NCBI GenBank assembly: GCA_025350905.1 | Contig: JANXWY010000341.1 | Span: 1 to 51,988 of the forward strand | Length of the DNA: 51,988 nucleotides | DNA from: Verrucomicrobiota bacterium | GTDB lineage: Bacteria > Verrucomicrobiota > Verrucomicrobiia > Limisphaerales > JADLHS01 | Direction: 5' to 3' | Part shown: positions 6,445-36,288 of the stretch, piece by piece | Numbering within the stretch: the first letter of the stretch is position 1 | Layout: the number at the start of each line of letters is the position of its first letter | Notes under the pieces: model-generated | Told to the model about the DNA's origin: nothing | The model's input: only the letters and a program-made list of their open reading frames with translations | Database searches by the model: none | Position numbers and translations under genes: made by a program

Positions 6445-6520
<76 letters not shown>

Positions 6521-14004: not shown

Positions 14005-15260
14005 ACGATGTCCGCCCTCACCCTGCCCTGCTCCCCCGAGGCGAGGGAACGGCAACGTTCGTCTGCCAAAATTCCAGCGACTTAGCTTTCGCCGACCGAC
14101 GGAAGATAAATTTCCCTCGCCCAACGGGGGAGAGTTGGGGTGGATGGATTCGGCGGGTCTGGCTCCTATTTAGCCTTTGGTTTTCGATCACAGCTTCGGC
14201 TCAGCACACGCAGCTTAAACGCGACGAACAGATCGTTTTCTATCCGAGCGTGGCCCAACGCGTCGCCGGCGACACAAACTTTTGGCGCGCGGAAATTCGT
14301 GGCTGCGTTTTCGAGGTGGAGCAGCGCACCGTCCTGCTGGCGGCGTTGCGCGCGGCACTGGATTTGAAAGACGTCACCATGACCGCGGCCGAAGCGAAAG
14401 TTTTCAACGAGCGCGCACGACTTTTTCTCGTGGACCACAAGCCCGGCAAAAAGGTATTCATCCGCTGCGGCACGAATGAATTCTTGGTAGGCAAGTCCGG
14501 GGTGGATGGGCGATTCGCGGGCTCGGTTCGATTGCGCGACATGGATTGGGGCCGCCGGCCGCCGAGCGGGCGCGAGGACGACCGCGCCGCAGTACCCGCC
14601 GGGTCGGAGACTGGCGCTCCGTTTACGGCCGTGCTCAGCGCTGGTGACCAGCGGATTTTCTCCGGCGAGGTGTTCTTCCTGGAGGACCAGGGGCTGAGCG
14701 TGATCTCGGATATTGACGACACCATCAAGGTCACCGAAGTACGGAACCGTCCCGCGACGTTGCGCAACACCTTCCTGCGTGAGTTCCAACCCGTGCCGGG
14801 CTTGGCAGAGCTTTACCAGTCGTGGGCGCATTCGAATCGCGCGGCGTTTCATTACGTTTCCGCGAGTCCCTGGCAGCTTTATGAACCGTTGAGCACGTTT
14901 ATTCAGATGCACGGATTTCCCTCAGGAACTTTCGCCTTAAAGCAGTTTCGCTGGAAAGATGGCAGCTTCTTCAGCCTGTTTGCCGGCCCAGAGCAATACA
15001 AGCGGCGGGTCATTGAACCCTTGTTGCAAAAGTTTCCGAGTCGCCAGTTCATCCTGATTGGTGATTCGGGTGAGCGCGATCCGGAAATTTACGCGACGCT
15101 GGCGCGAAAGTATCCCCGGAGGATCGCGCGGATCTACCTTCGCGATGTGACAGGCGAAGCGGCGGACGCGGATCGATACGTCCAAGCGTTCCTCGGTGTG
15201 CCGCGCGGGCGCTGGCAGATTTTTCGCGAGCCGGGCGAATTGACGATCGCTTCCGAGTGA
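14001..15260 (+). CDS. App1-family phosphatidate phosphatase (DUF2183)
   Basis: ISDIDDTIK (DxDxT), HYVSASPWQL, LIGDSGERDPEIY; ATGA overlap with upstream gene. Confidence 0.87.
   Translation: MNDVRPHPALLPRGEGTATFVCQNSSDLAFADRRKINFPRPTGESWGGWIRRVWLLFSLWFSITASAQHTQLKRDEQIVFYPSVAQRVAGDTNFWRAEIRGCVFEVEQRTVLLAALRAALDLKDVTMTAAEAKVFNERARLFLVDHKPGKKVFIRCGTNEFLVGKSGVDGRFAGSVRLRDMDWGRRPPSGREDDRAAVPAGSETGAPFTAVLSAGDQRIFSGEVFFLEDQGLSVISDIDDTIKVTEVRNRPATLRNTFLREFQPVPGLAELYQSWAHSNRAAFHYVSASPWQLYEPLSTFIQMHGFPSGTFALKQFRWKDGSFFSLFAGPEQYKRRVIEPLLQKFPSRQFILIGDSGERDPEIYATLARKYPRRIARIYLRDVTGEAADADRYVQAFLGVPRGRWQIFREPGELTIASE
14015..14144. repeat. Palindromic element (CCCTCACCC family) within App1 N-terminus
   Basis: CTCCCCCG..GCGAGGGAA pairs with TTCCCTCGC..CGGGGGAG; related to 35572-35633. 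Confidence 0.65.
14547..14620. repeat. Degenerate GGAG-capped palindrome in frame within App1
   Basis: Right arm GCCGGGTCGGAGACTGGCGCTCC, decayed left arm; encodes WGRRPPSGREDDRAAVPAGSETGAP. Confidence 0.55.
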
Positions 15261-15280
15261 ATTTCGGCTAACTTGGGCGC

Positions 15281-16078
15281 GTGGCCAAACCCACTTCCAT
15301 CGAACTACCCGGCGTGCCGCCGATCCCGATTCTCTATGAAGACCGGTCGGTCCTGGCGATTGACAAGCCGCGGGGTTGGATGCTCGTGCCGTTTTCGTGG
15401 CAGAAGACGAACTGGAATTTGCAGGCGGCCATCGTGTCGTCCATCGGCGCGGGCGATTTCTGGGCGCGGTCGCGCGGATTGAAATTTCTCAAGTTCGTCC
15501 ATCGGCTGGATGCGGAGACGACGGGAATTTTGCTCTTCGCCAAAAGCCCGGGCGCGGTGGAGTCATATTCGGACTTGTTCGAGGATCGGCGGATGGAGAA
15601 GACGTATCTGGCCGTTGTGGAAGGCGTGCCGAAGCAAACAACCTGGACGTGTCACCTGAAACTCGGTCCCGCCCCCGGCCAGATCGGACGGATGCGGGTG
15701 GACGAACGCGAAGGCAAGGACGCCGAGACGCACTTTCGTATGTTGCAGACGAATGACGGGCGTAGCCGCCGACGGGAGGCGGCGGAAGCGGACCCAAGGG
15801 CCATATCAAATGACCGCCTCGCTGCCACCGCCGTTTCGTCACTTGTCGAAGCCCGCCCGCTCACGGGACGTACGCACCAAATCCGCCTGCACCTGGCCGA
15901 GACCGCCGGGCCGGTGGTGGGCGACGACATTTACGGCCGCCGGACGATTCGTGGCCAACTGGGACTGCGAGCCGTGCGCCTGACGTTCGCGGATCCGTTC
16001 ACGCGGCGCCGTATCGACATTCGCGCCCCGGTCGAGGAATTTTGTCGCGAATATGGATTCGACATTCCCACGCTTTAG
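15281..16078 (+). CDS. RluA-family pseudouridine synthase
   Basis: DKPRG, HRLDAETTG (catalytic Asp), TGRTHQIR, GDDIYG. Confidence 0.92.
   Translation: MAKPTSIELPGVPPIPILYEDRSVLAIDKPRGWMLVPFSWQKTNWNLQAAIVSSIGAGDFWARSRGLKFLKFVHRLDAETTGILLFAKSPGAVESYSDLFEDRRMEKTYLAVVEGVPKQTTWTCHLKLGPAPGQIGRMRVDEREGKDAETHFRMLQTNDGRSRRREAAEADPRAISNDRLAATAVSSLVEARPLTGRTHQIRLHLAETAGPVVGDDIYGRRTIRGQLGLRAVRLTFADPFTRRRIDIRAPVEEFCREYGFDIPTL
15761..15838. repeat. GTAG-capped REP-like element in frame within RluA
   Basis: CGTAGCCGCCGACGGGAGGCGGCGGA matches intergenic 30714-30739 at 24/26 nt; right arm decayed. Confidence 0.75.
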
Positions 16079-16096
16079 GGCAAATTCCGCGCCCAC

Positions 16097-16597
16097 ATGG
16101 AAAATAGCGTTGCCTCTCCGCCGGCGGAAATCGGTGTTGTTATCTGCGAAACGGAACTGATTCAGTTCCGCCTTTCGCGGATTCACGGCACCGGTGGTTA
16201 TGCCCGCCAAACCATTGCCGCCGGAACGCGGGTCATTGAATACCTCGGCGAGCGGATCTCCAAAGCCGAATCGCTCGTCCTGTGCGAGGCCGACAACGTG
16301 TATATTTTCGACATCGATGACGAGTTTGATCTGAATGGCAATGTGGCTTGGAACCCGGCGCGGTTTCTCAATCACGGCTGCGCGCCCAACTGTGAGGCGG
16401 AGCAGGACGAGGCGCGGATCTGGATCCTGGCGTTGCGTGATATCCCGGTCGGAGAGGAGTTGACCTTCAACTATGGCTACGGCCTGGAAGATCACCTTGA
16501 CCATCCGTGTCGCTGCGGGGCGTCGGCGTGTGTCGGTTATATCGTGGCGGAGGAATTCTTCGACCAATTGCGCCCGCAAGCAGCACTACCGGCGTGA
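16097..16597 (+). CDS. SET-domain protein-lysine methyltransferase with post-SET cysteines
   Basis: IHGTGGYA, IEYLGE, RFLNHGCAPN, ELTFNY, CRCGASAC. Confidence 0.9.
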   Translation: MENSVASPPAEIGVVICETELIQFRLSRIHGTGGYARQTIAAGTRVIEYLGERISKAESLVLCEADNVYIFDIDDEFDLNGNVAWNPARFLNHGCAPNCEAEQDEARIWILALRDIPVGEELTFNYGYGLEDHLDHPCRCGASACVGYIVAEEFFDQLRPQAALPA

Positions 16598-16694
16598 GGT
16601 GGCTATTTGGGACTGCGGTAGCTCGCATCCCCTCCTGGAATAGTCGCCGCGGGAAAGCTTGCAGTGGCCTGGGTCCAGCGGGAAACTAAACGGC

Positions 16695-17324
16695 GTGACG
16701 AGTGACCAATCATTTCGGCTCGGCGTGCTCGGTTCGGGCAGAGGCTCGAACTTCGTCGCCCTTGCGGACGCGATCACGGCCGGAAGCATTCCGGCGCAGA
16801 TCGCGACCGTGCTGAGCGACGTGGCGGCCGCGGGAATTCTGGAACAGGCGCGCCAACGCCAGCTTCCGGCCCAATTCATCGCCCCGGGAAAATTCCGCAC
16901 GAAACTGGATGAGGAAGCGGAGCGCGCTTATGTCCTGGCGTTGCAAGCCGCCCGCGTGGATTTAATCGTGTTGGCGGGTTTCATGCGCGTGCTCAAAGGT
17001 GATTTCCTTCGGGCCTTCGAGGGCCGGATTGTGAACATACATCCCTCTTTGCTGCCGTCGTTTCCTGGCCTGGAAGCGTGGAAACAGGCGTTGGATCAAG
17101 GCGTGAAGGTGACGGGTTGCACGGTGCATTTCGTGGATGCCGGCGTGGATGCCGGCGCGATCATCGACCAGCAAACGGTGGCGGTGCTGGACGACGACAC
17201 GGCCGCGACATTGCACGCGCGGATTCATGCAGCGGAGCATGAGTTGTATCCCAAGTGCGTGGCCGCGATTGCGCGTGGGGAGATCTTGGTTCAGGGGCGT
17301 CGGGTGATCCGGAAAGTCGGTTGA
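16695..17324 (+). CDS. purN: Phosphoribosylglycinamide formyltransferase
   Basis: [34 protein letters not shown]; start placed at GTG 16695. Confidence 0.95.
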
Positions 17325-17390
17325 AACCACTCGATACACCAAATACACGAAATGAATTCAGATTTCGTGCGGTTCGCGTATGCCGTAGTT
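17325..17390. repeat. Palindromic element (AACCAC...TACACGAAA family)
   Basis: Imperfect inverted repeat; same family as 29349-29434. Confidence 0.65.
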
Positions 17391-17468
17391 AATCCATCAG
17401 CCGCACAAAGCACACAGCTTGGCCGCGATGGACTTGGCCAATAATTCCCGCTACGCTGGAAATAATTT

Positions 17469-18350
17469 ATGAGCATTAAGCAGATACTCCGCTTCGGTTT
17501 GCCCAAGGGCAGCCTGCAGGAGGCCACCGTGCAAAAAATGGCCAAGGCCGGCTGGAACATCTCGGTCAGCAGCCGGTCCTACATCCCCTATGTGGACGAT
17601 CCGGAGATGGAAATCCGCCTCATCCGCGCGCAGGAAATCAGCCGTTACGTCGAACACGGCTACCTGGATTGCGGCATCACCGGTTACGACTGGATCATGG
17701 AGAACGGCTCGAAGGTTCACGAGGTGGGCGAATTTCTGTTCAGCAAAGCCACTCGCAAACCCGCCCGCTGGGTGTTGTGCGTGCCGGAAGATTCGCCCAT
17801 CAAATCGGTGAAGGACTTGAAGGGCAAACGTATCGCCACAGAGGTCGTCAACCTCACCAAGAAATATTTGAAAAAGCACGGCGTCAAGGCCGAGGTGGAA
17901 TTTTCCTGGGGCGCCACCGAGGTGAAGGCGCACGAGCTGGTGGACGCCATCGTCGAAGTCACCGAAACCGGTTCCTCGCTGCGCGCGAACAAGCTGCGCA
18001 TCGTGGACGAATTGCTCTGCTCCACGCCCCGACTGATCGCGAATCCGGCCGCGTGGAAGAACAAATGGAAGCGGAAAAAGATCGAGACGATCGCCCTTCT
18101 GCTCAAAGGCGCGCTCGAAGCTGAAACCAAAGTCGGTTTGAAAATGAACATCCGCGAAAAGGATTTGCCCCGGCTGCTCGCCAACCTGCCGGCGCTGCGT
18201 AATCCGACCATCTCCAACCTCAGCCTCAAGGGCTGGGTCGCGGTGGAGACAATCATTGACGAACACATCGTGCGCGAATTGATTCCCGCCCTCAAAGCCG
18301 CCGGCGCGGAAGGCGTCACCGAGTATCCGCTGAACAAGGTGGTTTACTGA
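17469..18350 (+). CDS. hisG: ATP phosphoribosyltransferase (long form)
   Basis: [32 protein letters not shown]-terminal regulatory domain. Confidence 0.96.
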
Positions 18351-18364
18351 AGCCGACCGGCGAG

Positions 18365-18485
18365 GTTGAAACCGCTAATCCTCGCTCATCACCGCTAATT
18401 CAAAGGAGTTCACCGTTGCGACGGCGTGCGTTTGCGGGCGGGCCGCCCGCGATTAGCGTTTATCAGCGCAAATTAGCGGTTCAAC
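18365..18485. repeat. Palindromic element with internal CGCTAAT units
   Basis: GTTGAAACCGCTAAT...ACCGCTAAT pairs with ATTAGCG...ATTAGCGGTTCAAC. Confidence 0.65.
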
Positions 18486-18511
18486 TTTGTGTATCGTCAT
18501 TTCGGGACGGT

Positions 18512-18859
18512 CTACTTTGCAGCCAGCGTCATCTGATTCGTCAGGCCGGGAGCGACCGCGTAAACCTCAAGCCTGCCATCGGAATTCTCAATGAAATCAA
18601 CCCGATCATGCTGCCTGAGTTGCAGCCCGTCGCCAGAATGCTTCGAGAAGGCAGAAAGCTCTTCTTAGTTCTTGGGCCATCGCAGGATTGCTTGCCGAAA
18701 TTTGGCGACCTAAAGACTTAGCTCAAGTGGCAGAGTGATTGCCTGACTGACCGCCGCGGTAACCACGGCGTTTCCGAAATCGTGAGCAATGCATCCCGTG
18801 AAGAAGGCGACGCAGGCTCCGACCAAACCAAGCAACCCGTATTTCGTAAAGCAGCGCAC
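18512..18859 (-). pseudogene. Lipoprotein pseudogene (cassette-like) with two in-frame stops
   Basis: GTG 18859, lipobox FFTGC; frame stays protein-like through TAG (18710) and TAA (18665) to TAG 18512; preceded by GTTAGGC. Confidence 0.5.
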
Positions 18860-18981
18860 AACTGTCTGGAGGATAATACAGCAAACTACGCCTAACTTCA
18901 CACCGGGCGGAGAGCACCATTCGCACGGCGAACGATTCATTTAGGGAAACATAATTGTGGCGGCGTTAGAGCGCATTGGTG

Positions 18982-19242
18982 TCAGTGTTTCTCCTCCTCT
19001 TTATGAAGTGCGGCGCGAAGTAGCCAGCCTCCAGCAATCGCGCAAGCAACCGGAACTATGAGGGCCAACGCGCCAGACAATCTGCCGGGAACCTGAGTCT
19101 GCCCGCCTCCGCGGTCCAAGAAAACAGGAACTCCATCTACGAGGATCTCCCGCAACATCTCGAAGCCCGTGACCCAACAAATCACCCCACCCACTGCCAA
19201 GAGCAGGAGCACGCTGCCACCAAATATCGAGAAAGCTCTCAT
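18982..19242 (-). CDS. Small hypothetical membrane protein (2 TM)
   Basis: 86 aa with two hydrophobic segments; in the cassette-like run. Confidence 0.6.
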   Translation of the reverse strand: MRAFSIFGGSVLLLLAVGGVICWVTGFEMLREILVDGVPVFLDRGGGQTQVPGRLSGALALIVPVACAIAGGWLLRAALHKEEEKH

Positions 19243-19329
19243 GGGTCGAATGTAACCGTTGTCATAGAGTTCTGACCATGTGTTTGGATGTTCTGCGTCA
19301 TGCGTCCCTTCTGATTGGTTGGCTTGCGG

Positions 19330-19767
19330 TTATTGGGCGGTTGGGTTCATCAAGACCTCGCCAAGGTTAGTGACCGACCCGGAATAGAATGGAATGGTCG
19401 CCGGTTCGTAGCCATCCCGCCGTAACACCAGCGTCCCACCTTGCGGAGACTCGCCAAATTTCATCAACGGCCACCAAAGCAATGTGAAACCGAAAACCAA
19501 TGACCGCTCCGCTGGCACGGAAAATCGCCCAGCCTCATCAGTGTGTATCGTCGGCGAGCGTAACGCAGCCAGCACATTAGCAAGGGAGAGCGAAGGGTCA
19601 GATGTTTGGGAGACGGCCACTTCCGCGCCCTGAATGGGAGAACGTGACTGTGAATCCAGCACGACTCCCTTCGCTCCGGGACTCTCTGTCTGATGAAATA
19701 TGACGCAGCCGGAACAAAGCAGTCCAGCCATCAGGAACAAAGTGAGATTCTGTACGAAGCTTTTCAT
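19330..19767 (-). CDS. Lipoprotein with carboxypeptidase-regulatory-like (transthyretin-like) domain
   Basis: Lipobox LCSGC; GVVLDSQSRSPIQGAEV...TDEAGRF...RDGY pattern. Confidence 0.7.
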   Translation of the reverse strand: MKSFVQNLTLFLMAGLLCSGCVIFHQTESPGAKGVVLDSQSRSPIQGAEVAVSQTSDPSLSLANVLAALRSPTIHTDEAGRFSVPAERSLVFGFTLLWWPLMKFGESPQGGTLVLRRDGYEPATIPFYSGSVTNLGEVLMNPTAQ

Positions 19768-19823
19768 AATTCGTGTTGTTTACGCCGGCTAGACGGCCTT
19801 GTTTTTGTGCGCTGCATGGGATC

Positions 19824-20240
19824 TCAAGTCTTCGGATTCAAGCGTTTGGAAATCAAATCCCAAATCCGCCGCCACCGGCGACTCCAACCTCGAAACCACC
19901 TGCGTTTCGGGCCGCGACTGTTCCGGTCCAGCTTGTGAAGAACGGCGGGGTCGTAGAGTTCGGCCGTTTGATTGTCAGGGGTCAACGCCTCGGCGGCGGG
20001 TTTGCCATAAATTCCGCCGAGGCTTTCGCCCGCGTCGTGCGCCGCTTGATCAAGTTCCTTCGCCACGAAACCCAGACTCCGGCGGAACTCGGAAAACCCT
20101 TCTCCCAGCCCCCGCAACAACTCGGGAAGTTTCCTGGCTCCGATGAGGATCAGGATCACGGCTAGAATCAACATGATCTCCCAGCCGCCAACGATGTCGG
20201 CGAGGATTGGAGGATTTGTTAGCAGCGATTTGTTCGGCAT
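19824..20240 (-). CDS. TatA/TatE-like protein with extended C-terminus
   Basis: GGWEIMLILAVILILIGARKLPELLRGLGEGFSEFRR matches the TatA TM plus amphipathic helix. Confidence 0.7.
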   Translation of the reverse strand: MPNKSLLTNPPILADIVGGWEIMLILAVILILIGARKLPELLRGLGEGFSEFRRSLGFVAKELDQAAHDAGESLGGIYGKPAAEALTPDNQTAELYDPAVLHKLDRNSRGPKRRWFRGWSRRWRRIWDLISKRLNPKT

Positions 20241-20653
20241 CAGCTCTGTCTCCGAAAAGTCCCTTCCCCATTGGGTTGCTCTTCCGGCTGCAGAACCAAT
20301 TCTCGATCGTCCAGCCGGACTATGCGTGTCCGCTCGACGAATGGTAGTCGGGCGTTGGTATCGCTGTGGCTCGTCGTAGTATCGGTCAGAACCCCGCCCC
20401 GGAACAGGATTGTCCCCGACTCGCTGTCCCTCCGCGTTTCATTGGACTTCACAGTTGTCATCTCCGCGAGGTAACTGCCATCCGCCGCAATAGTAACGAC
20501 GTCTCTGTGTTCGCCGTCGATATTCGTTTTCTCCATTAACCAAGTACCCGCAAGCTTCGCCTGTATCTCCGCGTCACCCTCCACCGGGGATGCGTGGCGC
20601 TGCCCACAAGCTGTCAGCAGCATGCTCAACATGATCATCGAAACAAATCTCAT
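20240..20653 (-). CDS. Hypothetical lipoprotein (lipocalin-like), gene-cassette ORF
   Basis: Lipobox LLTAC, LAGTW motif; flanked by complementary TTCGGCA / TGCCGAAC core-like sites. Confidence 0.7.
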   Translation of the reverse strand: MRFVSMIMLSMLLTACGQRHASPVEGDAEIQAKLAGTWLMEKTNIDGEHRDVVTIAADGSYLAEMTTVKSNETRRDSESGTILFRGGVLTDTTTSHSDTNARLPFVERTRIVRLDDRELVLQPEEQPNGEGTFRRQS

Positions 20654-20660
20654 GGGAACT

Positions 20661-20763
20661 GCCGAAGGGCCAAACGATCAGAGCACGCGAGGGCAAACCA
20701 CGTGAACCGCGAAGCGGAACTGGACCGGCCATCCCGCGTTGCCTGCAGCGATTTGTGTGCGCC
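20661..20763 (-). mobile_element. Degenerate attC-like recombination site
   Basis: About 100-bp imperfect palindrome (GCAGGCAACGCGGG...CCTCGCGTGC) between cassette ORFs; decayed core sites GCGCACAC and CTTCGGC; ACAAATCGCTGC recurs at 20222-20233 next to GCCGAAC. Confidence 0.55.
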
Positions 20764-20770
20764 TGACATG

Positions 20771-20816
20771 GGTGTGAGCTGATGGGGTGAAAGGCCAATC
20801 CTCCCGCCTACCCGAT
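20771..20816 (+). mobile_element. Probable 3' remnant (end of domain V plus domain VI) of a group IIC-attC intron
   Basis: GGTGTGAG...CCTCCCGCCTACCCGAT joined directly to TAGCTGC, the bottom strand of the cassette core site. Confidence 0.5.
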
Positions 20817-21268
20817 TAGCTGCCTTTGTCACGACCATCTTTTCGTCTCCTCTCTTTCAGTGTCTCCTCTGCTTTCAGACAGGCTGCTTCTGACCAAGCC
20901 TGAAATCCAGTGTCGCTAGAAAAGGATAAAAAGGAACTCGTCGCTTCGCTTCGCTGTAAAAGGTCAGGGCGCTCGGCTACGACCAAATCCGAGAGAACGC
21001 GCATGAGCTCACGACCACAATCGAAGCACCAATTGGTCGCTCTACCGTTCGCGCCAATCTCTCCAGAGTCCGCGTCCTTGCCACAAAACTCGCACTTCTT
21101 CCCGAGGACGGACAATGCCTCAATCTCCTTCCAGTCCAACTTGTGGCGATCGAATCCGGTGGGTGGAGCGCAGTCCGGGCAAAGGGGAACGGTCTCCTCC
21201 TCCGCACCATCCACCACCATCCTGAAGTGGATCGTCGCCTCCTTCTGATGACACTTGGCACAACGCAT
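20816..21268 (-). CDS. Zinc-finger protein with McsA-like N-terminus, gene-cassette ORF
   Basis: CAKC..EATIH..LCPDC, CEFC, CFDC; bounded by GTTAGCTGC upstream and GCAGCTAA at the stop. Confidence 0.7.
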   Translation of the reverse strand: MRCAKCHQKEATIHFRMVVDGAEEETVPLCPDCAPPTGFDRHKLDWKEIEALSVLGKKCEFCGKDADSGEIGANGRATNWCFDCGRELMRVLSDLVVAERPDLLQRSEATSSFLSFSSDTGFQAWSEAACLKAEETLKERRRKDGRDKGS

Positions 21269-21349
21269 GGGCGATAGCAGCTAACAGAAATATTCACCGA
21301 AAGTCAGCGCTCGCGGATTAGGGGTGGTTTGAGGCGGCTTCATGGGGCG

Positions 21350-21378
21350 ACTTTAGGCCGCGACCCGCAGGGCGTCAA
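21350..21378 (-). promoter_or_regulatory. Sigma70-like promoter facing the cassette run
   Basis: TTGACG-17 nt-TAAAGT-6 nt-ATG 21343 of a 20-aa ORF that stops at the GTTAG core site. Confidence 0.55.
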
Positions 21379-21537
21379 CTTACGTTTCGGGGGGAATGAA
21401 AAACTCAAAATGCAGAAGGTAAACTGGGGGCGTAGGGCGGAGGCGGGTTGAGCGGCGGGGCGGCAGGAGCAGGTCAGAATCGGTGAGCGTCCCAACGGCA
21501 TCTTGACCCGTGCCGCGCATCGGGCCATCCTTACGGC

Positions 21538-21765
21538 GTGACGACGACCATTTCCAGCAAAGGCCAGGTGGTTATTCCGCGCCCGATCCGCGAGCGACAC
21601 AAATTTCGCGCGGGCGATGATTTTCTGCTCTTCGAGCTTGCCAATGGCGACATTATGCTGCGCCGGGTGCGTTCACCGAAGCAATCGCTCGCGTGGCATT
21701 TTCGCCGTCTGCGCGGCCTCACCCTGGAGCGCCGCCGCGAGCGGGTCCGGGAGGTCGCCTTTTGA
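21538..21765 (+). CDS. vapB: AbrB/MazE-type antitoxin (VapB)
   Basis: TTISSKGQVVIPRPIRE swapped-hairpin motif; upstream of a PIN toxin. Confidence 0.88.
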   Translation: MTTTISSKGQVVIPRPIRERHKFRAGDDFLLFELANGDIMLRRVRSPKQSLAWHFRRLRGLTLERRRERVREVAF

Positions 21766-22178
21766 ACTGGCTACTCGATACCAACACGCTTTCCGAACTG
21801 ACCAAGCCTTCACCCCACGCTGGTCTGCTCACCGGGCTGGAGGCGAACGAAGCGGAAGCCGCCATCAGCGCGATCAGCATTGGCGAAATCGTGGCCGGCA
21901 TCGAACATCTGCCGGCCAGCAAGCGGCAGCGTTCACTCGAACGCACCTTCAAGTTCCTCCGCGAAGATTATGCGGGCCGGATTCTGGATTTCAACGAAGG
22001 CGTGGCGGTGGAATGGGGACGGCTCGTGGCCGAGGCCAAAAGGCAAGGACGCATCCTGTCAGTCCGCGACAGCCAGATTGAAGCCACAGCCATTCACTTC
22101 GGCCTGACGGTGGTAACCCGCAACGGCGACGACTTCTATTATCCGGTCTTCAACCCGTGGTCACCGTCGGCATCTTGA
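21762..22178 (+). CDS. vapC: PIN-domain toxin (VapC)
   Basis: WLLDTN, SIGEI, DSQIEATA, VVTRN..DF; TTG start overlaps the antitoxin stop (TTGA). Confidence 0.9.
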   Translation: MNWLLDTNTLSELTKPSPHAGLLTGLEANEAEAAISAISIGEIVAGIEHLPASKRQRSLERTFKFLREDYAGRILDFNEGVAVEWGRLVAEAKRQGRILSVRDSQIEATAIHFGLTVVTRNGDDFYYPVFNPWSPSAS

Positions 22179-22227
22179 AGTCAAACCTCGCGCTCACCCG
22201 GCCCAAACTCATGCTCTCGACGCTGAT

Positions 22228-22623: not shown

Positions 22624-22633
22624 GTGCCTGGCA

Positions 22634-28786: not shown

Positions 28787-28814
28787 ACTTCGCAGAAGAG
28801 CGGGCTTCAGCCAG

Positions 28815-28968
28815 CCAGCGCCGTAGGCGCGGAATCTTCGTAGCCTGCACGGTCCGTTTTTCGCAAGCTCCGTCAGGAGCGGCATATTCCCCGACGATAT
28901 CGCTCCTAAGGAGCTTGGGATTGTTTTAGGGCGGAGGTTCTACAAATATGCCGCGCCGCTGGCGCTGG
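28815..28968. repeat. Nested palindromic element
   Basis: Outer CCAGCGCC..GGCGCGG..TAG / CTAC..CCGCGCC..GGCGCTGG; inner CAAGCTCC..AGGAGCG / CGCTCCT..GGAGCTTG. Confidence 0.7.
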
Positions 28969-28976
28969 TAAATGGC

Positions 28977-29045
28977 GTAGCGGCGACTCGGCAGAGCGCG
29001 GCCCTTTGGAATTCCGTCAGGGGCAGTCTGCTGACACACCGCTAT
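28977..29045. repeat. GTAG-capped REP-like palindrome (GTAGCGG...CCGCTA)
   Basis: GTAGCGGCGACTCGGCAGA pairs imperfectly with TCTGCTGACACACCGCTAT; shorter relative at 42694-42724. Confidence 0.6.
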
Positions 29046-29147
29046 GGGGAGAATGTGAATTACGCCGTGAAGACCAGTTAGCGCCCGTGCTTTCGGGAAT
29101 CAGGGCCCGGAGTGGCCGCCAGACTGAAAGAGCCGAACACGAAAGAG

Positions 29148-29210
29148 ATGAAGTTGGAGGAGGTCGTCAAATTGGTCGAACAAGCGGCCGTGCTTGTGCT
29201 CGTGTACTGA
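29148..29210 (+). CDS. Putative small peptide or gene-end remnant MKLEEVVKLVEQAAVLVLVY
   Basis: 20-aa ORF (32 aa from GTG 29112); 14/18 aa identical to the unit at 29287-29343. Confidence 0.35.
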   Translation: MKLEEVVKLVEQAAVLVLVY

Positions 29211-29214
29211 CCCT

Positions 29215-29282
29215 GTAGCAGCCGACGTGAGGAGGCTCATTTCAAACGCAGGAAGTCAGAGCCTCGTCACCTCGGCTGCTAC
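29215..29282. repeat. GTAG-capped REP-like palindrome (GTAGCAGCCGACGTGAGGAGGC family)
   Basis: 24-nt arms pairing 22/24; relatives at 15761 and 30714. Confidence 0.8.
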
Positions 29283-29286
29283 GATT

Positions 29287-29343
29287 TTGGAGGTGGTGGT
29301 GAAGGAGGCGGCGCAAGCGGCGGTGCTGGTGTTGGTTTACTAA
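29287..29343 (+). other. Second copy of peptide unit LEVVVKEAAQAAVLVLVY-stop
   Basis: Recoded copy of 29154-29210 with 7 synonymous codon changes and a TGA-to-TAA stop change. Confidence 0.5.
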
Positions 29344-29348
29344 TGTTC

Positions 29349-29434
29349 AACCACGAAATACACCAAACACACGAAAGGAACACTGCCCAGAATCGCCCGC
29401 CAGGTTTTTCGTGTGGTTCGTGTATTTCGTGGTT
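29349..29434. repeat. Palindromic element (AACCACGAAATACAC family)
   Basis: AACCACGAAATACAC...CACACGAAA / TTTCGTGTG...GTGTATTTCGTGGTT. Confidence 0.8.
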
Positions 29435-29645
29435 AAAAACCCCTTGAAACCGGCGGAGCGCGCGGCGGGGTTGGGGTTGGTTCACCAGCAAAATCTGGTA
29501 ATAAAACGCCAACAATCAATTGGCCCAACCGCCAGAATCCCCTACCCTCCTCCGCGTGAACGAGTGTCGGCTTTCCGGATATCCGGAACGACCTCTCCCC
29601 GCCTGCGGGAATATTTTGGCAGGTAAACGCAATCGACATTGAAAT

Positions 29646-30704
29646 ATGAACCACAAGATCACGCAACTCCTCGGCGATTCCGCCCCGGCGCTCCTCGAAC
29701 ATCAATGCAAAACCGTGCCCAAGGAAAACCTGCACCTTCCCGGCCCCGACTTCGTTGACCGCGTCATGGCCTGCACGGACCGCACTCCCCAGGTGCTGCG
29801 CAGCCTCCAGCAAATGTTCAACACCGGCCGTCTCGGCGGCACCGGTTATTTGTCCATCCTGCCGGTGGACCAGGGCATCGAACATTCGGCAGGCGCCAGC
29901 TTCGCCCCGAACCCGGATTACTTTGATCCGGAAAACATCGTGAAACTCGCCCTCGAAGGCGGCTGTAACGCCGTCGCATCCACGCTCGGCGTGCTCGGCA
30001 TGGTTTCGCGCAAATACGCGCACCGCATTCCGTTTATGGTGAAGCTGAATCACAACGAGCTGATGACCTGCCCGAACAAATTCGACCAGATTTATTTCGC
30101 GCAAGTCGAACAGGCCTGGAACCTCGGGGCGACCGCGGTGGGGGCGACCATTTACTTCGGTTCGGCGGAATCGGCGCGGCAGATTGTCGAGACCAGCCTA
30201 GCGTTCAAGCGGGCGCATGAACTCGGGCTGGCCACCGTGCTTTGGTGTTACCTCCGGAACAATGCATTCAAGACGAAGGAAAAGGATTATCACGTCAGCG
30301 CCGATCTCACCGGCCAGGCGAATCATCTCGGCGTAACGATCCAAGCCGACATCATCAAGCAGAAGCTGCCGGAGAACAACGGCGGCTATAAGGCCGTCCC
30401 GAATTACGGCAAAACCCATGAGAGGGTTTACACGGAATTGACAACCGATCATCCGATTGATCTGTGTCGGTATCAGGTATTGAACTGTTATTCCGGTCGC
30501 GCCGGCTTGATTAATTCCGGAGGCGAATCCAAGGGCAAGGGCGACCTCGAAGCCGCGGTGAAAACGGCCGTGATCAACAAACGCGCGGGCGGCACCGGCT
30601 TGATTTCCGGCCGCAAGGCGTTTCAACGGCCCCTGGTGGAGGGCGTCGAATTGCTCAATGCGATTCAGGACGTCTATCTGGACAAGGATATCACGGTGGC
30701 CTGA
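29646..30704 (+). CDS. fbaB: Class I fructose-bisphosphate aldolase (DhnA/FbaB)
   Basis: [30 protein letters not shown] (Schiff-base Lys), [10 protein letters not shown]. Confidence 0.95.
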
Positions 30705-30713
30705 CCTGCATAG

Positions 30714-30785
30714 CGTAGCCGCCGACGTGAGGAGGCGGATTCTGGAGATTCGAGCCGCCCGCCGACTTCTAAGGCGGCGGCGACA
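30714..30785. repeat. GTAG-capped REP-like element downstream of fbaB
   Basis: CGTAGCCGCCGACGTGAGGAGGCGG with decayed right arm ...GGCGGCGGCGAC. Confidence 0.7.
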
Positions 30786-30868
30786 GTGCTTGCTCCGGCT
30801 ATCACTTGGAGACTAAAAGGGCCGTGGTGCAGCACGCACGACGGTCGTTTGAAATTTTGCGACCCGCA

Positions 30869-31261
30869 TCAACTCTTCCAGTCAAACGCCTTCTTCTTCA
30901 CTGCGTAGATGTAGCCGATAAAAAGAATGCCGAGGAAGGAAACCATCGAGCCGAGAATCAGGTTCCGCGTGGCCGGGTCTTGCAGCATGGACTTGTAGAT
31001 CACCGCCCACGGATACATGAACACGACTTCAATATCGAACAGGATAAACAGCATCGCCACGAGGTAGAATTTCACCGACATCCGGGTGCTGCCTTCGCCA
31101 ATTGGCAGCATGCCGCACTCGTACGCGGTGTCCTTGATCTTGCTGGTCCGCCCGCGTTTGCCGAGCACCATCGAAAGGCCAATCATGCCGCCGGTGGCCG
31201 CCACAGCGAGCACGAACAGGATCAGCACGGCGAGGTATTGGGGAAACTGCGACGATTCCAT
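30869..31261 (-). CDS. nuoA: NADH-quinone oxidoreductase subunit A (second, stand-alone copy)
   Basis: YECG loop, FYLVAMLFILFDIEVVFMYPWA, AFDW. Confidence 0.92.
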   Translation of the reverse strand: MESSQFPQYLAVLILFVLAVAATGGMIGLSMVLGKRGRTSKIKDTAYECGMLPIGEGSTRMSVKFYLVAMLFILFDIEVVFMYPWAVIYKSMLQDPATRNLILGSMVSFLGILFIGYIYAVKKKAFDWKS

Positions 31262-31318
31262 GGACTGAAGTTAAGAAAAGCACCGGGGCCTTGGCAAGTG
31301 TTACCGGGACGCCGTCGC

Positions 31319-31470
31319 GGTAGGGTCGTCGCGCTGCGATGACCCCGGCCCGGGCAGGACTCGAACACCTTTTTGCGTACGTCCGGGTTCAGAGTGCGAC
31401 CCAGCGTCAACTGCCTTGCCGCCGTTGCGCCCCTGCACGGGGCGCTGGTCATCACAGCGCGATGACCCTA
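31319..31470. repeat. GTAGGG-family REP-like palindrome
   Basis: TAGGGTCGTCGCGCTGCGATGACC / GGTCATCACAGCGCGATGACCCTA (22/24); related to 33991-34118. Confidence 0.8.
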
Positions 31471-33384
31471 GCCGGGGGTCGCGACCTCAAGTTTTGTGAA
31501 ACCTTCCTCGATGGTGGAAGTGTTTTGGATCCGGGCGAGTCGGGCATACAGCCCGTCCTGCGCCAGCAAATCCTCGTGCGCACCGCGCTCGATGATCTGC
31601 CCATGCCGCAGCACCAGGATTTGATCCGCCCGCCGAATCGTGCTGAGCCGATGCGCGATGACGAAGCTCGTGCGATTGGCCATGAGCCGCTCGAGCGCCT
31701 CCTGAATCAAGCGCTCCGTGGCGGTGTCCACGCTGGCGGTCGCTTCGTCGAGAATGAGGATGGGGGCGTTTTTGAGCAGCGCCCGGGCAATGCTCACGCG
31801 TTGCTTTTCGCCGACGCTCAACTTCACGCCGCGCTCGCCGACGCGGGTATCAAAACTCTGCGGCAGGTTCGCGATGAATTCGTAACAATTCGCCGCGCGG
31901 GCAGCGGCCAGCAACTCAGCTTCGGTCGCATCCAATTTGCCATAGAGAATGTTTTCTCGAATCGTGCCGTTGAAGAGGAACGGCTCCTGACTGACCACGC
32001 TGATGTGTTCGCGCAACGATTCGAGCGCAACGTTACTGATGTCCTGCCCGTCCACCAAAATGCGGCCGGAGGTGAGTTCGTAGAGCGCAGGCAGCAGGTT
32101 TACCACTGTGGATTTACCAGCGCCGGTTGGCCCGACCAGCGCAATCATTTCACCCGGTTGGGCGTGCAGCGAAATGTTGTTCAAGACTGTCCGCTCGACT
32201 TTCGGAGCGCCGAGCACCGTCTCGGCTTGATTCAGATCGGTTTCCCAAACTTGCCGAGTCGGCGCTCGGCGCTCCGGTTCGGAGGCGTAACTGAAACCGA
32301 CATTTTCATAAACCACTTCGCCGCGCACCGGTCGGTGCAGAGCCTCGCGGCGCTTGTCGTCGTCGCGTTCTTTTGTCGCATCCAGAATATCCAGCACGCG
32401 CTCGCCCGCCGCCCGCCCGCTTTGCAGCAATTGATTCAGCCCGTGTAACTGGCCGATCGGGGTGTAAAACATGCCAAGGTAAAGCAGATACCCCACCAGC
32501 GCGCCCGGCTCCATCTGGTGTTGAATGACCTGCCGCCCGCCCACCCAGAGCACGAGCGCAAAACCGATCGCGCCGGCAAAACTCATCACCGGCGAGTAGA
32601 TCGCCCACACCCGCATGATGCCCAGCGTTCCCCGCCGGAGCGCATCCGCCCGCTCACTGAAGCGCTGGTCCTCGTGGGCTTCCCGCCCAAAGGCCTTGAT
32701 CTGCCGGACGCCTTGCAGATTGTCCATCAACAGCGCATTCATGGCACTCGATGCTTCGCGTTGCCGCCGATAACGTCGATGCGCCGTCAGCGTGTACCAC
32801 AGCGCCCCCAGCGCCAGCACGGGGATGGGGGACATCGCGACCAACGCGAGCCACGGATTGGAATAAATCAGAATGGCGCCTACGCCCAGGACGCCGACCA
32901 ACGCCACCACGCCCTGCTCCGTTCCGTCGATCAACACGCGCTCCACGGAGTTCACGTCTTCAATGACGCGGGTCATCAGATCGCCGGACGCGCGCTGGTC
33001 GAAATAGCCGACCGGCAGTCGTTGCAGCCGCGCATAAACCTCGCGGCGCATGTCGAAAATCACGTTTTGCTCGAAGTGATTGTTGACGAGAATGCGCAAC
33101 CCGCTGAAAAGGTCGCGCAGCAAGAACGCACCGATCAAACCGAGCATCACCGCGGTCAATTGCTCGGTGCGCCCCTGCCGAATCACATCGTCAATGGCAT
33201 AGGCCGTGAGTTTGGGAAACGCGAACGACGCCAGGAGCGAAAGGACGGTGCACGCGACTGTCGCCACCGAGGCCAGTTTGTACGGCCGCAGGTAAATGGC
33301 GACGCGTCGGACCACTTCCCAAGTCGAACGCGACTTCGCGGAGAAGGTGGGATCGGCTTCGGTTGAGGGAGCGCCATGGGCCAT
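31468..33384 (-). CDS. ABC exporter, fused permease/ATPase (MsbA/MdlB-like)
   Basis: TM domain, Walker A GPTGAGKS, LSVGEKQR signature, ILDEATA, IAHRLST; start placed at ATG 33384. Confidence 0.93.
   Translation of the reverse strand: MAHGAPSTEADPTFSAKSRSTWEVVRRVAIYLRPYKLASVATVACTVLSLLASFAFPKLTAYAIDDVIRQGRTEQLTAVMLGLIGAFLLRDLFSGLRILVNNHFEQNVIFDMRREVYARLQRLPVGYFDQRASGDLMTRVIEDVNSVERVLIDGTEQGVVALVGVLGVGAILIYSNPWLALVAMSPIPVLALGALWYTLTAHRRYRRQREASSAMNALLMDNLQGVRQIKAFGREAHEDQRFSERADALRRGTLGIMRVWAIYSPVMSFAGAIGFALVLWVGGRQVIQHQMEPGALVGYLLYLGMFYTPIGQLHGLNQLLQSGRAAGERVLDILDATKERDDDKRREALHRPVRGEVVYENVGFSYASEPERRAPTRQVWETDLNQAETVLGAPKVERTVLNNISLHAQPGEMIALVGPTGAGKSTVVNLLPALYELTSGRILVDGQDISNVALESLREHISVVSQEPFLFNGTIRENILYGKLDATEAELLAAARAANCYEFIANLPQSFDTRVGERGVKLSVGEKQRVSIARALLKNAPILILDEATASVDTATERLIQEALERLMANRTSFVIAHRLSTIRRADQILVLRHGQIIERGAHEDLLAQDGLYARLARIQNTSTIEEGFTKLEVATPG
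32203..32276. repeat. GGAG-capped palindrome in frame within the ABC ATPase domain
   Basis: CGGAGCGCCGAGCACCGTCTCGGC / GCCGAGTCGGCGCTCGGCGCTCCG (22/24); encodes PERRAPTRQVWETDLNQAETVLGAP. Confidence 0.85.
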
Positions 33385-33406
33385 AAAACGAATCGGGCGG
33401 CGTGAT

Positions 33407-33919
33407 TCAACCGCGCGCCAAGAAATCCACCATCGCCTTTGCAAACGGAGCCAGGTCCAGCGGCGTACGGCTGGAAATCAAATTGCCGTCCACCACCACC
33501 GGCTCGTTCACCCAGTAGGCGCCGGCGTTTTCCAAATCGTCCTTGATTCCAAGTGAACCGGTAACGCGTTTGCCGTTCAGGATGCGGGCCGAAATCGGAA
33601 TCCAGCCCCCATGACAGATGAACGCGACCACTTTGCCCTGCTCAAAAAATTCGCGCGTAAGCGAAAGCACCTTGAGATCGCGCCGCAGTTTGTCCGGCAT
33701 GAAACCACCCGGCACGAGCAACCCACAAAAGTCCGCACTCCGCGCGTCGCGCAACAGCAGATCCGCTTTGGCGGGATAACCGTGCTTGCCGGTGTAGATT
33801 TTCAACTCCGGACCCGCCAACCGCATCGCATAGCCGGCTTCTTCACAGCGCAATTTCGGATACCACAACTCCAAGTCTTCGTAGAGATCGTCCACGAACG
33901 TCAGCAACGTTTTCGACAT
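33407..33919 (-). CDS. PfpI/DJ-1 family protease/deglycase
   Basis: YEDLELWYP, VPGGFMPD, ICHG, VVDGNLISSR; start re-placed to ATG 33919. Confidence 0.9.
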   Translation of the reverse strand: MSKTLLTFVDDLYEDLELWYPKLRCEEAGYAMRLAGPELKIYTGKHGYPAKADLLLRDARSADFCGLLVPGGFMPDKLRRDLKVLSLTREFFEQGKVVAFICHGGWIPISARILNGKRVTGSLGIKDDLENAGAYWVNEPVVVDGNLISSRTPLDLAPFAKAMVDFLARG

Positions 33920-33990
33920 GGCTGATGCTAGCGGACCCCACTGACTTTGGGCAAGCGGCGCAATATCGAGGTCGTGCCTTGATTCGACGA

Positions 33991-34118
33991 GGTAGGGACA
34001 TTGCGCTGCGATGTCCCCGCCCGTAAAGCGGGCGGAACGTGTGAAATGGATGAGCATTTTTCCAGTTCCTTGCGCCGCTATTCCGCAGCGCGGGACGGCG
34101 CAGCGCGCCATCCCCACC
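33991..34118. repeat. GTAGGG-family REP-like palindrome
   Basis: GGTAGGGACATTGCGCTGCGATGTCCC / GGGACGGCGCAGCGCGCCATCCCCACC. Confidence 0.72.
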
Positions 34119-34203
34119 AGATTAGGCCACCGCCTAATGCGGTCGCGTAAACGGACGAGGGCGAAGCTTGGAAACCTTCTGCGGGCGGACTAGACTGCGC
34201 CGC

Positions 34204-36288
34204 ATGTCGCGCGACTACGTTTTGCAACCCTTCCAAGCTGCCGTCCACTTGCAGATTGATTATGCGCGCGAACTCAACCAGCAACAGTGCGCCGCCGTCA
34301 CCGCGCCGCCCGGCCCGGCGCTGGTCATTGCCGGCGCCGGTTCGGGCAAGACCCGCACGCTCATTTATCGCGTTGCGTATTTGCTCGAACAGGGCATTCC
34401 GCCCGATCGCATCCTGCTGCTCACGTTCACCAACAAAGCCGCCGGCGAAATGATGCGGCGCGTCACGGATTTGCTCGGGCACGAACTGACCGCGTTGTGG
34501 GGCGGGACCTTTCATTCCATCGGCAATCGCATCCTCCGCCAGCACGCGGCCCTGCTGGGCTACGGGCGGGATTTCACCATCCTGGATCGCGACGACGCCA
34601 AGCATCACATCAGCAGCTGCGTCGCGGAGTCGGACATTGACGTCAAAGCCACCCGCTTCCCCAAGGCCGAGGTGCTCGGAGATATTTTCTCGCTCGCGGT
34701 CAATACCCATAAATCCATCCCGGAAATTCTCGGCACGGAATACGGTTACTTCGCCGACCTCGCGCCGCAGATCGAAGCCATGCAACAGAGCTACCGCGCC
34801 CGGAAGCTGGCCACTAACGCCGTCGACTTCGACGACCTGCTGGTCCTTTGGCTCAAGTTGCTTCAGACTCACGCCGACGTTTGCGAGCACTACCAGCGAC
34901 GCTTCCAGTTCCTGCTCGTGGACGAATACCAGGACACGAACAAACTGCAGAGCGACCTCATTGATCTACTGGCCGCGCGCCATCGGAACGTGATGGTAGT
35001 GGGTGATGACGCGCAAAGCATCTACGCCTGGCGCGGCGCGAATTTTCAAAATATTCTCAAATTCCCGGAACGTTATCCGGGGGCCCAGACCTACAAGATC
35101 GAAACCAACTATCGCAGCACACCGGAAATCCTGACCGTGGCCAACGCCGCCATCGCCGCCAACGTCCAGCAATTTGCCAAGCAGCTCGCGCCCGCCCGCA
35201 AGTCCGGCGCGAAGCCCGTCCTGGTGACATGCAACGACGCCGCCGAGCAGGCCGCCTTCGTCGCTCAACGTGTGCTGGAACTGCGCGAGGAAGGCGGGGA
35301 CATGAACCAGATGGCAGTGCTGTACCGCTCCCACTTTCACGCGCTCGAACTGCAGTTGGAACTCACGCGCCGCAACATCCCGTTCAGCATCACCAGCGGC
35401 ATCCGTTTCTTTGAGCAGGCGCACATCAAGGACGTGACGGCGCATCTCAAACTGGTGACCAATCCGCGCGACGAACTTTCGTTCAAGCGGATCGCCCAGC
35501 TCCTCCCCGGGGTCGGCGGCAAGGGGGCGGACAAATTGTGGCGGACTTTCAACGGTGAACACGCAAACAGTCCCCTCACCCGTCCTGCAGACACCCTCTC
35601 CCCATCCGATGAGGAGAGGGACGGGGTGGGGGGTGCTCCAGTTGCAAACCGCAAGCACATCGCCACCGCTCTCCAAGCTTGCGCCAAGCATGTCCCCAAA
35701 AAAGCCTTGTTGGCTTGGGCGCAGTTGACGGCGACCGTCGCCCAGCTCGAAGCGCCTGACGTTCGCACCAGCGCCGCCCGGATGATTCCACTCGTAATCG
35801 AAGCGGGGTACGACGATCACCTGAAGGAAAACTTTGCCAACTACCGCTCCCGCTTGGAGGACTTGAAACAACTGGCGGTCTTCGCGCAACAATTTCCGAC
35901 GGTGGATGAATTCCTCACCCAGCTGGCGCTGCTCACGAACGTTGAGGCCGAGGCGGAGCAGCAGCCCGCCAACCGCGATGACGAGAAACTGCGCCTGTCC
36001 ACGATCCACCAAGCCAAGGGCCTGGAGTTCGACGTGGTGTTCATCCTCATGCTCTGCGATGGGCTCTTTCCCTCCGCCCGCTCGATGGAATCCACCGAAG
36101 GCGAAGAAGAAGAACGGCGGTTGTTTTACGTCGCGGTGACCCGCGCCCGCAACGAACTTTACCTCAGCTACCCGCTCCTGCGCGCCGGCTACGGCAACAC
36201 GGGCGCTACGATGCAACAACCGTCGAGATTTTTGGAAGAAATCCCGAAGGCGCTGTTGGACGAGTGGAATCTGCGGTCGTACGGGTGA
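34204..36288 (+). CDS. UvrD/PcrA-family ATP-dependent DNA helicase
   Basis: AGAGSGKT, TFTNKAA, VDEYQD, GDDAQSIY.WRGA, NYRS, TIHQAKGLEF, EERRLFYVAVTRA. Confidence 0.95.
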   Translation: MSRDYVLQPFQAAVHLQIDYARELNQQQCAAVTAPPGPALVIAGAGSGKTRTLIYRVAYLLEQGIPPDRILLLTFTNKAAGEMMRRVTDLLGHELTALWGGTFHSIGNRILRQHAALLGYGRDFTILDRDDAKHHISSCVAESDIDVKATRFPKAEVLGDIFSLAVNTHKSIPEILGTEYGYFADLAPQIEAMQQSYRARKLATNAVDFDDLLVLWLKLLQTHADVCEHYQRRFQFLLVDEYQDTNKLQSDLIDLLAARHRNVMVVGDDAQSIYAWRGANFQNILKFPERYPGAQTYKIETNYRSTPEILTVANAAIAANVQQFAKQLAPARKSGAKPVLVTCNDAAEQAAFVAQRVLELREEGGDMNQMAVLYRSHFHALELQLELTRRNIPFSITSGIRFFEQAHIKDVTAHLKLVTNPRDELSFKRIAQLLPGVGGKGADKLWRTFNGEHANSPLTRPADTLSPSDEERDGVGGAPVANRKHIATALQACAKHVPKKALLAWAQLTATVAQLEAPDVRTSAARMIPLVIEAGYDDHLKENFANYRSRLEDLKQLAVFAQQFPTVDEFLTQLALLTNVEAEAEQQPANRDDEKLRLSTIHQAKGLEFDVVFILMLCDGLFPSARSMESTEGEEEERRLFYVAVTRARNELYLSYPLLRAGYGNTGATMQQPSRFLEEIPKALLDEWNLRSYG
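35572..35633. repeat. CCCTCACCC-family palindrome in frame within UvrD
   Basis: CCCCTCACCCGTCC..CCCTCTCC..GGAGAGGGACGGGGTGGGGGG; encodes PLTRPADTLSPSDEERDGVGG. Confidence 0.75.

Follow-up and report, generated by a model that had tools for sequence, protein, structure and literature searches.

In-frame copies of REP/REPIN-like palindromic repeats in protein-coding genes of a Limisphaerales bacterium

The stretch of DNA considered here (the window) is the whole of contig JANXWY010000341.1, 51,988 nucleotides (nt) long, from assembly GCA_025350905.1, the draft genome of a soil/sediment bacterium of the order Limisphaerales (Verrucomicrobiota) that we refer to as G000. The assembly comprises 6.27 Mb in 489 contigs, with 59.7% G+C, and is 95% complete; its nearest public records are all metagenome-assembled genomes (MAGs). 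Four genes of the window, encoding a phosphatase, a pseudouridine synthase, an ABC exporter, and a helicase, together contain five segments of repeat DNA. A preliminary description, made from the sequence alone, had listed these segments as palindromic elements lying in coding regions without frameshift, and each is indeed in a continuous open frame. Each of the five has further copies elsewhere in the genome.

Two of the segments are in a gene for an App1-type phosphatidate phosphatase (14001..15260, forward strand; 419 amino acids [aa]; Pfam PF09949, E = 4.6e-51), the ATG of which, at 14001, overlaps the stop codon of the upstream gene as ATGA. The N-terminal one (14015..14144, forward strand) is a 130-nt element of two inverted units that resemble repetitive extragenic palindromic (REP) sequences, separated by a spacer, and it takes up aa 5-48, between the ATG and the signal peptide (z = -4.3, where z measures hairpin strength against 200 mononucleotide shuffles; intact copies of the families discussed here span -4.3 to -8.7). 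The App1 middle segment (14547..14620, forward strand; aa 183-207) is a decayed, in-frame member of the family we call F3 (F3 profile E = 4.6e-4; z = +0.1). The gene for an RluA-family pseudouridine synthase (15281..16078, forward strand; 265 aa; PF00849, E = 6.3e-27) holds a decayed, GTAG-capped element of family F2 in frame (15761..15838, forward strand; aa 161-186; z = -0.4), which corresponds to a gap of 75 nt relative to empty sites. The ABC exporter gene, with a transmembrane and a nucleotide-binding domain (31468..33444, reverse strand; 658 aa; PF00664, PF00005), carries an F3 element with 24-nt arms that are 92% complementary (32203..32276, reverse strand; z = -7.3), at aa 390-414 of the nucleotide-binding domain, in the turn between its first two β-strands. 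Finally, the gene for a UvrD-family helicase (34168..36288, forward strand; 706 aa; PF00580, PF13361) contains a 62-nt element of family F1 in frame (35572..35633, forward strand; aa 469-489; z = -4.5).

The RluA and App1 middle copies have lost hairpin significance in G000, and profiles seeded with them each return a single hit, namely the seed itself. They are too decayed for family assignment within this genome, so their families were set via relatives. We nevertheless call both of them elements because one surviving arm matches other loci and because relatives have intact palindromes at the same site. For RluA, the preliminary description had pointed to near-identical intergenic relatives, and the left arm is identical at 25 of 27 positions to 30713-30739, part of an intergenic F2-like element (30713..30785) of the subfamily seen in RluA. 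It had also related the App1 N-terminal and UvrD copies to each other. This too is borne out, as the App1 N-terminal profile converges on F1 (163 of its 249 hits overlap hits of the UvrD-seeded profile). Among relatives, the App1 N-terminal element is shared only with genome G008.

Repeat families were defined by iterated nhmmer profiles run on the genome, with hits merged into loci. In F1, an inner CCCTCTCCCC/GGGGAGAGGG stem is enclosed by CCCTCACCC…GGGTGAGGG ends (252 profile hits, about 169 loci). F2, of about 70 nt, forms a GTAG…CTAC hairpin (259 hits, about 130 loci), and its profile was seeded with an intact intergenic element at 29215..29282 (24-nt arms, 92% complementary; z = -8.7; both flanks non-coding). 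F3 is a hairpin of about 72 nt with GGAGCGCC…GGCGCTCC caps (77 hits, about 39 loci). The GTAG (or CGTC) cap is present in F2 and absent from F1 and F3. The five window segments are thus members of three families: F1 (UvrD and the App1 N terminus), F2 (RluA), and F3 (ABC and App1 middle). The earlier proposal of several distinct hairpin families stands insofar as there is more than one, but the number is three rather than up to five, and the membership of the ABC and App1 middle copies in one superfamily had been missed. In a subset of F3 copies, conservation continues for about 15 nt beyond either end, suggesting that the repeat belongs to a larger composite unit. A fourth family, F4, consists of AT-rich palindromes with arms of CACGAAA-like repeats (26 loci, including window copies at 29346-29437 and 17323-17392).

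To place these loci relative to genes, we used a codon log-likelihood classifier trained on long open reading frames (ORFs), which, when tested on 2000 windows of 60 codons, chose the correct one of the six frames in 98.5% of cases. A locus was counted as in frame if one frame was best on both 180-nt flanks and was open across the element; loci less than 183 nt from a contig end were set aside (13 of F1, four of F2, and one of F3). Among the remaining loci, 37/156 of F1, 38/126 of F2, 14/38 of F3, and 1/26 of F4 are in frame, compared with 1461 of 2915 non-edge draws of random 63-nt positions. F4 is essentially intergenic (none of 16 copies scoring at least 35 bits is in frame). By contrast, F1-F3 are not the predominantly extragenic repeats that the term REP implies, given that 24-37% of their non-edge loci are in frame within genes. 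The 89 in-frame F1-F3 loci are all continuous open frames and, together with the one F4 locus, fall in 77 ORFs, of which 76 have Pfam hits at E <= 1e-5 and eleven hold two or three inserts. The decorated proteins include RecQ, two UvrA, DnaE, MutS, LigA, an Hsp70, valyl-tRNA synthetase (three inserts), IleRS, GatB, PurL, ArgJ, KsgA, RlmN, AcrB, and type I restriction subunits. In the valyl-tRNA synthetase ORF (L170; C79:9733-12993), the three inserts are two adjacent F1 units, which form a 145-nt doublet, and one F2 copy. The density of about one event per 10 kb that was first suggested holds locally, in the window, whereas profile-detectable in-frame copies number 90 in 6.27 Mb, or about one per 70 kb genome-wide; the latter is an underestimate, because decayed copies such as those in RluA and App1 middle escape profiles built from this genome.

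In-frame copies use the available phases unevenly. The phase in which GTAG would be read with a TAG stop is used by none of the 38 in-frame F2 loci, and of the other two, 29 loci read SSRREEA…SLLTSAAT and 9 read VAADVRRL… (binomial p = 0.0017). One phase is likewise favored in F1 (24/33 loci) and in F3 (10/13). Near-consensus copies (>= 50 bits) are not depleted from genes: 21/32 for F1 and 19/43 for F2 are in frame, neither of which departs from the 50% of random positions. Most of the weaker F1 hits are non-coding (8/75 and 8/50 in frame in two lower score bands). Pairs of F1 outer arms fall into three size classes, with 13 of 18 pairs in frame at 50-99 nt, 5 of 15 at 100-149 nt (the App1 N-terminal type, i.e., two inverted units and a spacer), and 2 of 31 at 150-199 nt. 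Thus, the forms found in genes are the short, stop-free ones. In tests of profile length modulo three, the result for F3 is suggestive only (the 72-nt form, 7/11 versus 3/19, p = 0.015).

Comparison with orthologues, proposed at the outset as a check, found the RluA, ABC, and App1 middle inserts absent from many of them. At the RluA site, 77 of 81 orthologues (G000 and 80 public loci, from across the order) have a short β-turn and no insert; three of the remaining ones have a 25-residue GTAG insert and one has a different insert of 34 residues. In genome G002, an intact GTAG…CTAC palindrome occupies the same site, and the right arm in G000 differs from it by substitutions only. The insert peptides of the two genomes are identical at 13 of 26 residues, compared with 87% for the whole protein. 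Among relatives, F2 is found at this site in G002 and G007, and unrelated inserts of 34 and 50 codons are found there in other genomes. The ABC site is empty, with three basal codons, in 6 of 16 loci (G006, G008, and G004, in which the flanks are 90-93% identical, and three others). It is occupied by F3 in G000 and G012, by F1 in G002, G015, and G010, and by F1 in the opposite orientation in G011; in G009, an F2 element interrupts an F1 copy within its left half, and G017 has a lone F3 right arm.

The App1 middle site has eight basal codons in 6 of 15 relatives' loci (one locus, L046, was dropped as it offered no anchor). F3 is present in five genomes including G000, with intact palindromes in G008, G004, G002, and G007. 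Two F3 subfamilies are represented at this one site, and the differences between their arms are compensatory. At the UvrD site, F1 is found in four genomes (G002, G010, and G011 as well as G000), F2 in two (G006 and G017), and no insert was detected in nine. A fifth site, in an Hsp70-family gene, was picked from the census: G000 and G006 carry one F2 subfamily in one phase, and G008, G004, and G002 carry another F2 subfamily, which is shifted by 2 nt and read in the second phase. Overall, at all five sites (UvrD, RluA, App1, ABC, and Hsp70), sister genomes differ in the family or subfamily that occupies one and the same loop. It should be noted that these sites were chosen for having an insert in G000, and so are not an unbiased sample.

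The families extend well beyond this genome. Within the genus, F1 occurs in 18/18 genomes, F2 in 16/18, and F3 in 11/18, and in other families of the order the corresponding counts are 4/12, 7/12, and 1/12. There are many 62-nt F1 copies of the UvrD type in G000 and related genomes (87-95% identity), and F1 copies are 90-95% identical between genomes (95% over 62 nt), including a genome of another family. The UvrD stretch was also found in four public DNA sequencing runs of one study (RNA runs cover small shares of it only). Contigs from the DNA runs read across each of the two UvrD insert junctions and match there completely (0 differences). The F1 unit is delimited at 62 nt by loose contig ends, which lie precisely at positions 35572 and 35633. 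No empty UvrD allele (i.e., no joint between the flanks) was seen in these contigs, but this is not decisive, as contigs drop rare variants. RNA libraries show a spike in depth over the UvrD element because many other loci or organisms contribute, so the spike is not evidence of expression.

Structures were predicted for two proteins (RluA and the ABC nucleotide-binding domain) using AlphaFold2 with orthologue alignments as input. In the RluA model (mean predicted local distance difference test score [pLDDT] of 83), the insert (161-186) scores 46-51 and lies between strands 146-158 and 186-193. In the model of the ABC domain (mean pLDDT 69), the insert (residues 25-51 of the fragment) scores <50 and has no secondary structure; it lies between the first two strands (13-24 and 52-64), just past the FSY motif, the tyrosine of which we take to be the adenine-stacking A-loop residue. 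Both inserts are thus modeled as low-confidence loops at β-hairpin turns. Together with the orthologue alignments and the census, the models agree with the initial estimate of 20-45 aa inserts in protein loops (the range is about 21-44 residues).

Some of the repeats are associated with candidate mobilizing genes. The NCBIfam model NF047646 for the REP-associated tyrosine transposase (RAYT) matches 18 places in the genome, four of them above the cut-off of 80 bits. One gene, on contig C187 (80.7-82.2 bits), is flanked on both sides by GGAGCGCC-capped palindromes and contains another in frame. A RAYT-like gene with an HLH motif on contig C415 (50.6 bits) has one F2 copy upstream and two downstream, another on contig C475 (43.7 bits) has F2 copies on both sides, and the RAYT-like gene L224 on contig C423 has an F3 copy in frame. 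The RAYT link that had been suggested for these palindromes is thus seen for the F3 superfamily and, through genes scoring below the cut-off, for F2; none was found for F1. In all, three RAYT-like genes contain an in-frame palindrome, namely L073:1051-1872 (on C187), L224, and C153:3576-4367; in the C187 and C153 genes, the internal palindrome is of the same family as the flanking ones, which for C153 is a further family (GGGAGGGTGAGAG…). An ORF with IS66-family transposase and RNase_H_2 domains (L223; C415:24002-27109) has an F2 copy in frame, and more F2 copies are clustered just upstream of it, about 3 kb from the F2-flanked RAYT-like gene. Pfam Y1_Tnp has 16 matches, the five best of which are IS200-type and flanked by their own unrelated small palindromes rather than by F1-F3. 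As for a possible autonomous parent of F1, ten pairs of outer arms lie 200-4000 nt apart; the five that were inspected overlap parts of large ordinary ORFs and yielded no candidate.

We read the five segments as REP/REPIN-like palindromic mobile DNA of three families, inserted into coding genes and most likely translated as loops, and assign to this reading a probability of roughly 0.82. Copies of F1-F3 would have inserted into protein-coding genes of this bacterium, and would survive there if the net insertion preserved the frame, if the G+C-rich palindrome was stop-free (as it would be in two of three frames), and if a tolerant surface turn was hit. The products would be loops, hydrophilic and disordered, with a length of 21-28 residues (or 44 in the case of the App1 N-terminal insert, if it is translated). 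The palindrome would then be free to decay as long as the frame was kept, as seen in RluA and App1 middle. F2 and the F3 superfamily are probably mobilized by RAYTs (HUH/Y1 enzymes), the genes of which these repeats flank. Conservation of the frame makes translation most likely, and we infer that the inserts are neutral and that RAYTs move them. Translation of the App1 N-terminal insert is plausible, but less certain than for the other four because that element sits between the first ATG and the signal peptide; no second canonical in-frame start was found ahead of the signal peptide.

Several observations weigh against this reading or limit its reach. The App1 N-terminal element may be untranslated if an unseen start serves the gene. 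The F1-like sequence in the RNA-library contigs derives from many places, and these contigs are no proof of UvrD gene expression. The ABC model is only moderately confident. The canonical F1 unit of 62 nt is not a multiple of three, yet in-frame copies exist, and tests of profile length modulo three gave p = 0.14 for F1 (13/27 versus 2/11, Fisher) and p = 0.16 for F2 (chi-square). With regard to mobilization, both F2-flanked RAYT-like genes score below the NCBIfam cut-off, and neither a RAYT nor any other transposase was found adjoining F1 in this genome. The flanks of 36 full-length F1 copies carry <=0.6 bit per position, with neither a conserved target nor a duplication (the terminal C and GG, at 1.4-2.0 bits, were counted as part of the 62-nt unit). 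Lastly, in a fragmented draft such as this one, the counts of repeats and transposases are lower bounds.

One alternative is that the inserts are selected functional modules, acting either as peptides or as mRNA or DNA hairpins (for example, in regulated proteolysis, binding, or ribosome pausing, or as recombination signals). This would account for their persistence in housekeeping genes and their recurrence at the same sites, and it fits with the presence of near-consensus copies in genes at random levels, the strong phase preferences of F1 and F2, the re-occupation of sites in sister genomes, and the high identity of F1 copies across genomes, even in another family. However, phase preference could also stem from stop codons and peptide tolerance. 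Furthermore, the 77 decorated ORFs encode unrelated proteins, close relatives function without the inserts, and the insert regions are disordered in the models. The palindrome decays in place, and the RluA insert peptide is far less conserved than its host protein. We consider it unlikely that the inserts were selected for a function.

The other alternatives are much less probable. Removal of the inserts before the mature protein, through RNA processing, translational bypass, or protein splicing, has little to recommend it beyond the theoretical capacity of a strong hairpin in coding RNA to favor bypass. Inserts that are taken out would not have to avoid stops or stay in phase, but the TAG phase of F2 is never used and all 89 loci are open; moreover, the decayed RluA and App1 middle copies still hold the frame with the hairpin gone. 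No intein or intron family was detected, and the only Rfam matches in the window are two tRNA genes. We regard such removal as very improbable, and slightly more remote still is the idea that the segments are ancestral and were lost by relatives, or are artefacts of metagenome assembly, with palindromy incidental. The genome is, admittedly, a fragmented MAG, and run contigs do break inside the F1 unit. Against this, run contigs also cross each UvrD junction exactly, the same DNA units occur in non-coding DNA, and independent genomes have filled sites (G002 for RluA and UvrD, and G008 for App1). The empty RluA form, a short β-turn, prevails in 77 of 81 orthologues across the order.

Beyond the reading of the segments as inserted mobile DNA, there is a bolder possibility, which we advance tentatively and think more likely wrong than right. 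In this verrucomicrobial lineage, REPIN-like repeats may by now be compatible with coding, being rich in G+C, free of stops, and translated into hydrophilic, disordered peptides. Particular β-turn and linker codons of housekeeping genes would serve as heritable landing pads that are repeatedly hit or overwritten, and coding DNA would be a refuge rather than a graveyard for the repeats, making the process a systematic, targeted generator of loop diversity. The notion of a refuge comes from the finding that, among F1 copies, the best preserved fall within genes no less often than random positions do. In our judgment, re-use at five of five sites would exceed what is expected from selection on random insertions alone. 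If re-use does reflect targeting, and not selection alone, this would be a new property of RAYT/REPIN insertion.

Several known systems offer comparisons. In the REPIN-RAYT systems of Pseudomonas and E. coli, hairpin units or inverted REP doublets, in tens to hundreds of copies, are accompanied by a flanked, single-copy-type Y1/HUH gene, and classical REPINs are almost wholly extragenic. The F3 superfamily shows the same architecture of a repeat-flanked Y1/HUH gene, as does F2 at RAYT-like genes that score below the cut-off, but both differ in the large in-frame share of their loci, and in that the genome has 18 RAYT-like matches and several repeat families. Unlike miniature inverted-repeat transposable elements (MITEs), F1 has neither a target-site duplication nor a conserved flanking target, judging from its 36 full-length copies. 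Rickettsia palindromic elements (RPEs) occur as in-frame insertions within conserved genes whose orthologues lack them, presumably at the protein surface, with function kept; no dedicated transposase is known for them. Their host is an obligate intracellular alphaproteobacterium, and RPE-1 is longer, at about 100-150 bp. The inserts described here are likewise in frame, absent from orthologues, and (in the two proteins modeled) in surface-type loops of low pLDDT, but they differ from RPEs in that two of the families have flanked RAYT or RAYT-like genes.

RPEs had initially been given as the known precedent for in-frame coding insertions. They are a precedent (and are treated as such in PMC3733652) but not the only one, because intragenic GTAG REPs have been published. 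According to Di Nocera, De Gregorio & Rocco 2013 (BMC Genomics 14:522; PMC3733652), GTAG and CGTC REPs can lie entirely inside ORFs and encode 20-30 residues, with most intragenic cases in Opitutus terrae (Verrucomicrobiota) and R. conorii. Among the targets listed there for various species are UvrD/REP helicase, uvrA, DNA ligase, tRNA synthetases, and pseudouridine synthases; the inserts are argued to sit in linkers or loops and to be probably neutral, with the caution that N-terminal cases may be extragenic (PMC3733652). Intragenic palindromic inserts are therefore already known in the same phylum, and the G000 set, which is similarly in frame, within ORFs of recognizable proteins, and about 20-30 residues long (90 loci in 77 ORFs), adds to them. 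The present set differs in that F1 and F3 are not capped by GTAG or CGTC, in its host order, and in the turnover of families at one loop, the undepleted near-consensus copies, and the in-frame copies in RAYT genes. F2 may or may not be identical to one of the O. terrae families GTAG-17 to -20 (PMC3733652). A limited full-text search returned no paper in which different REP families recurrently occupy a single orthologous loop, nor did it find families F1 and F3, undepleted near-consensus copies, or RAYT genes with in-frame copies in print.

If the inserts are indeed translated, then essential proteins (UvrA, MutS, DnaE, Hsp70, tRNA synthetases, and ABC ATPases) tolerate 20-30 residues contributed by selfish DNA, and the inserts amount to a natural map of permissive loop sites. 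For the annotation of Verrucomicrobiota MAGs, they would account for recurrent low-complexity peptides and for length variation in conserved genes.

Some other features of the window and of the related records deserve mention. Two copies of a family of short, classical GTAG-capped REP hairpins flank the ABC gene in intergenic DNA, at 31313-31350 and 33985-34022, with 54 and 6 short-BLAST matches in the genome, respectively. An inverted repeat at 18370-18481 (30-nt arms, 80% complementary, with 52 nt between the arms) is single copy in the genome. The two tRNA genes, the sole Rfam matches at the gathering threshold, are at 6445-6517 and 51604-51678. The titles "uncultured Bifidobacterium/Bifidobacteriaceae," "beta proteobacterium," and "Candidatus Sulfotelmatobacter" appear on several of the nearest public records, but the RluA genes of these records group with those of Verrucomicrobiota MAGs, so these labels are probably wrong.

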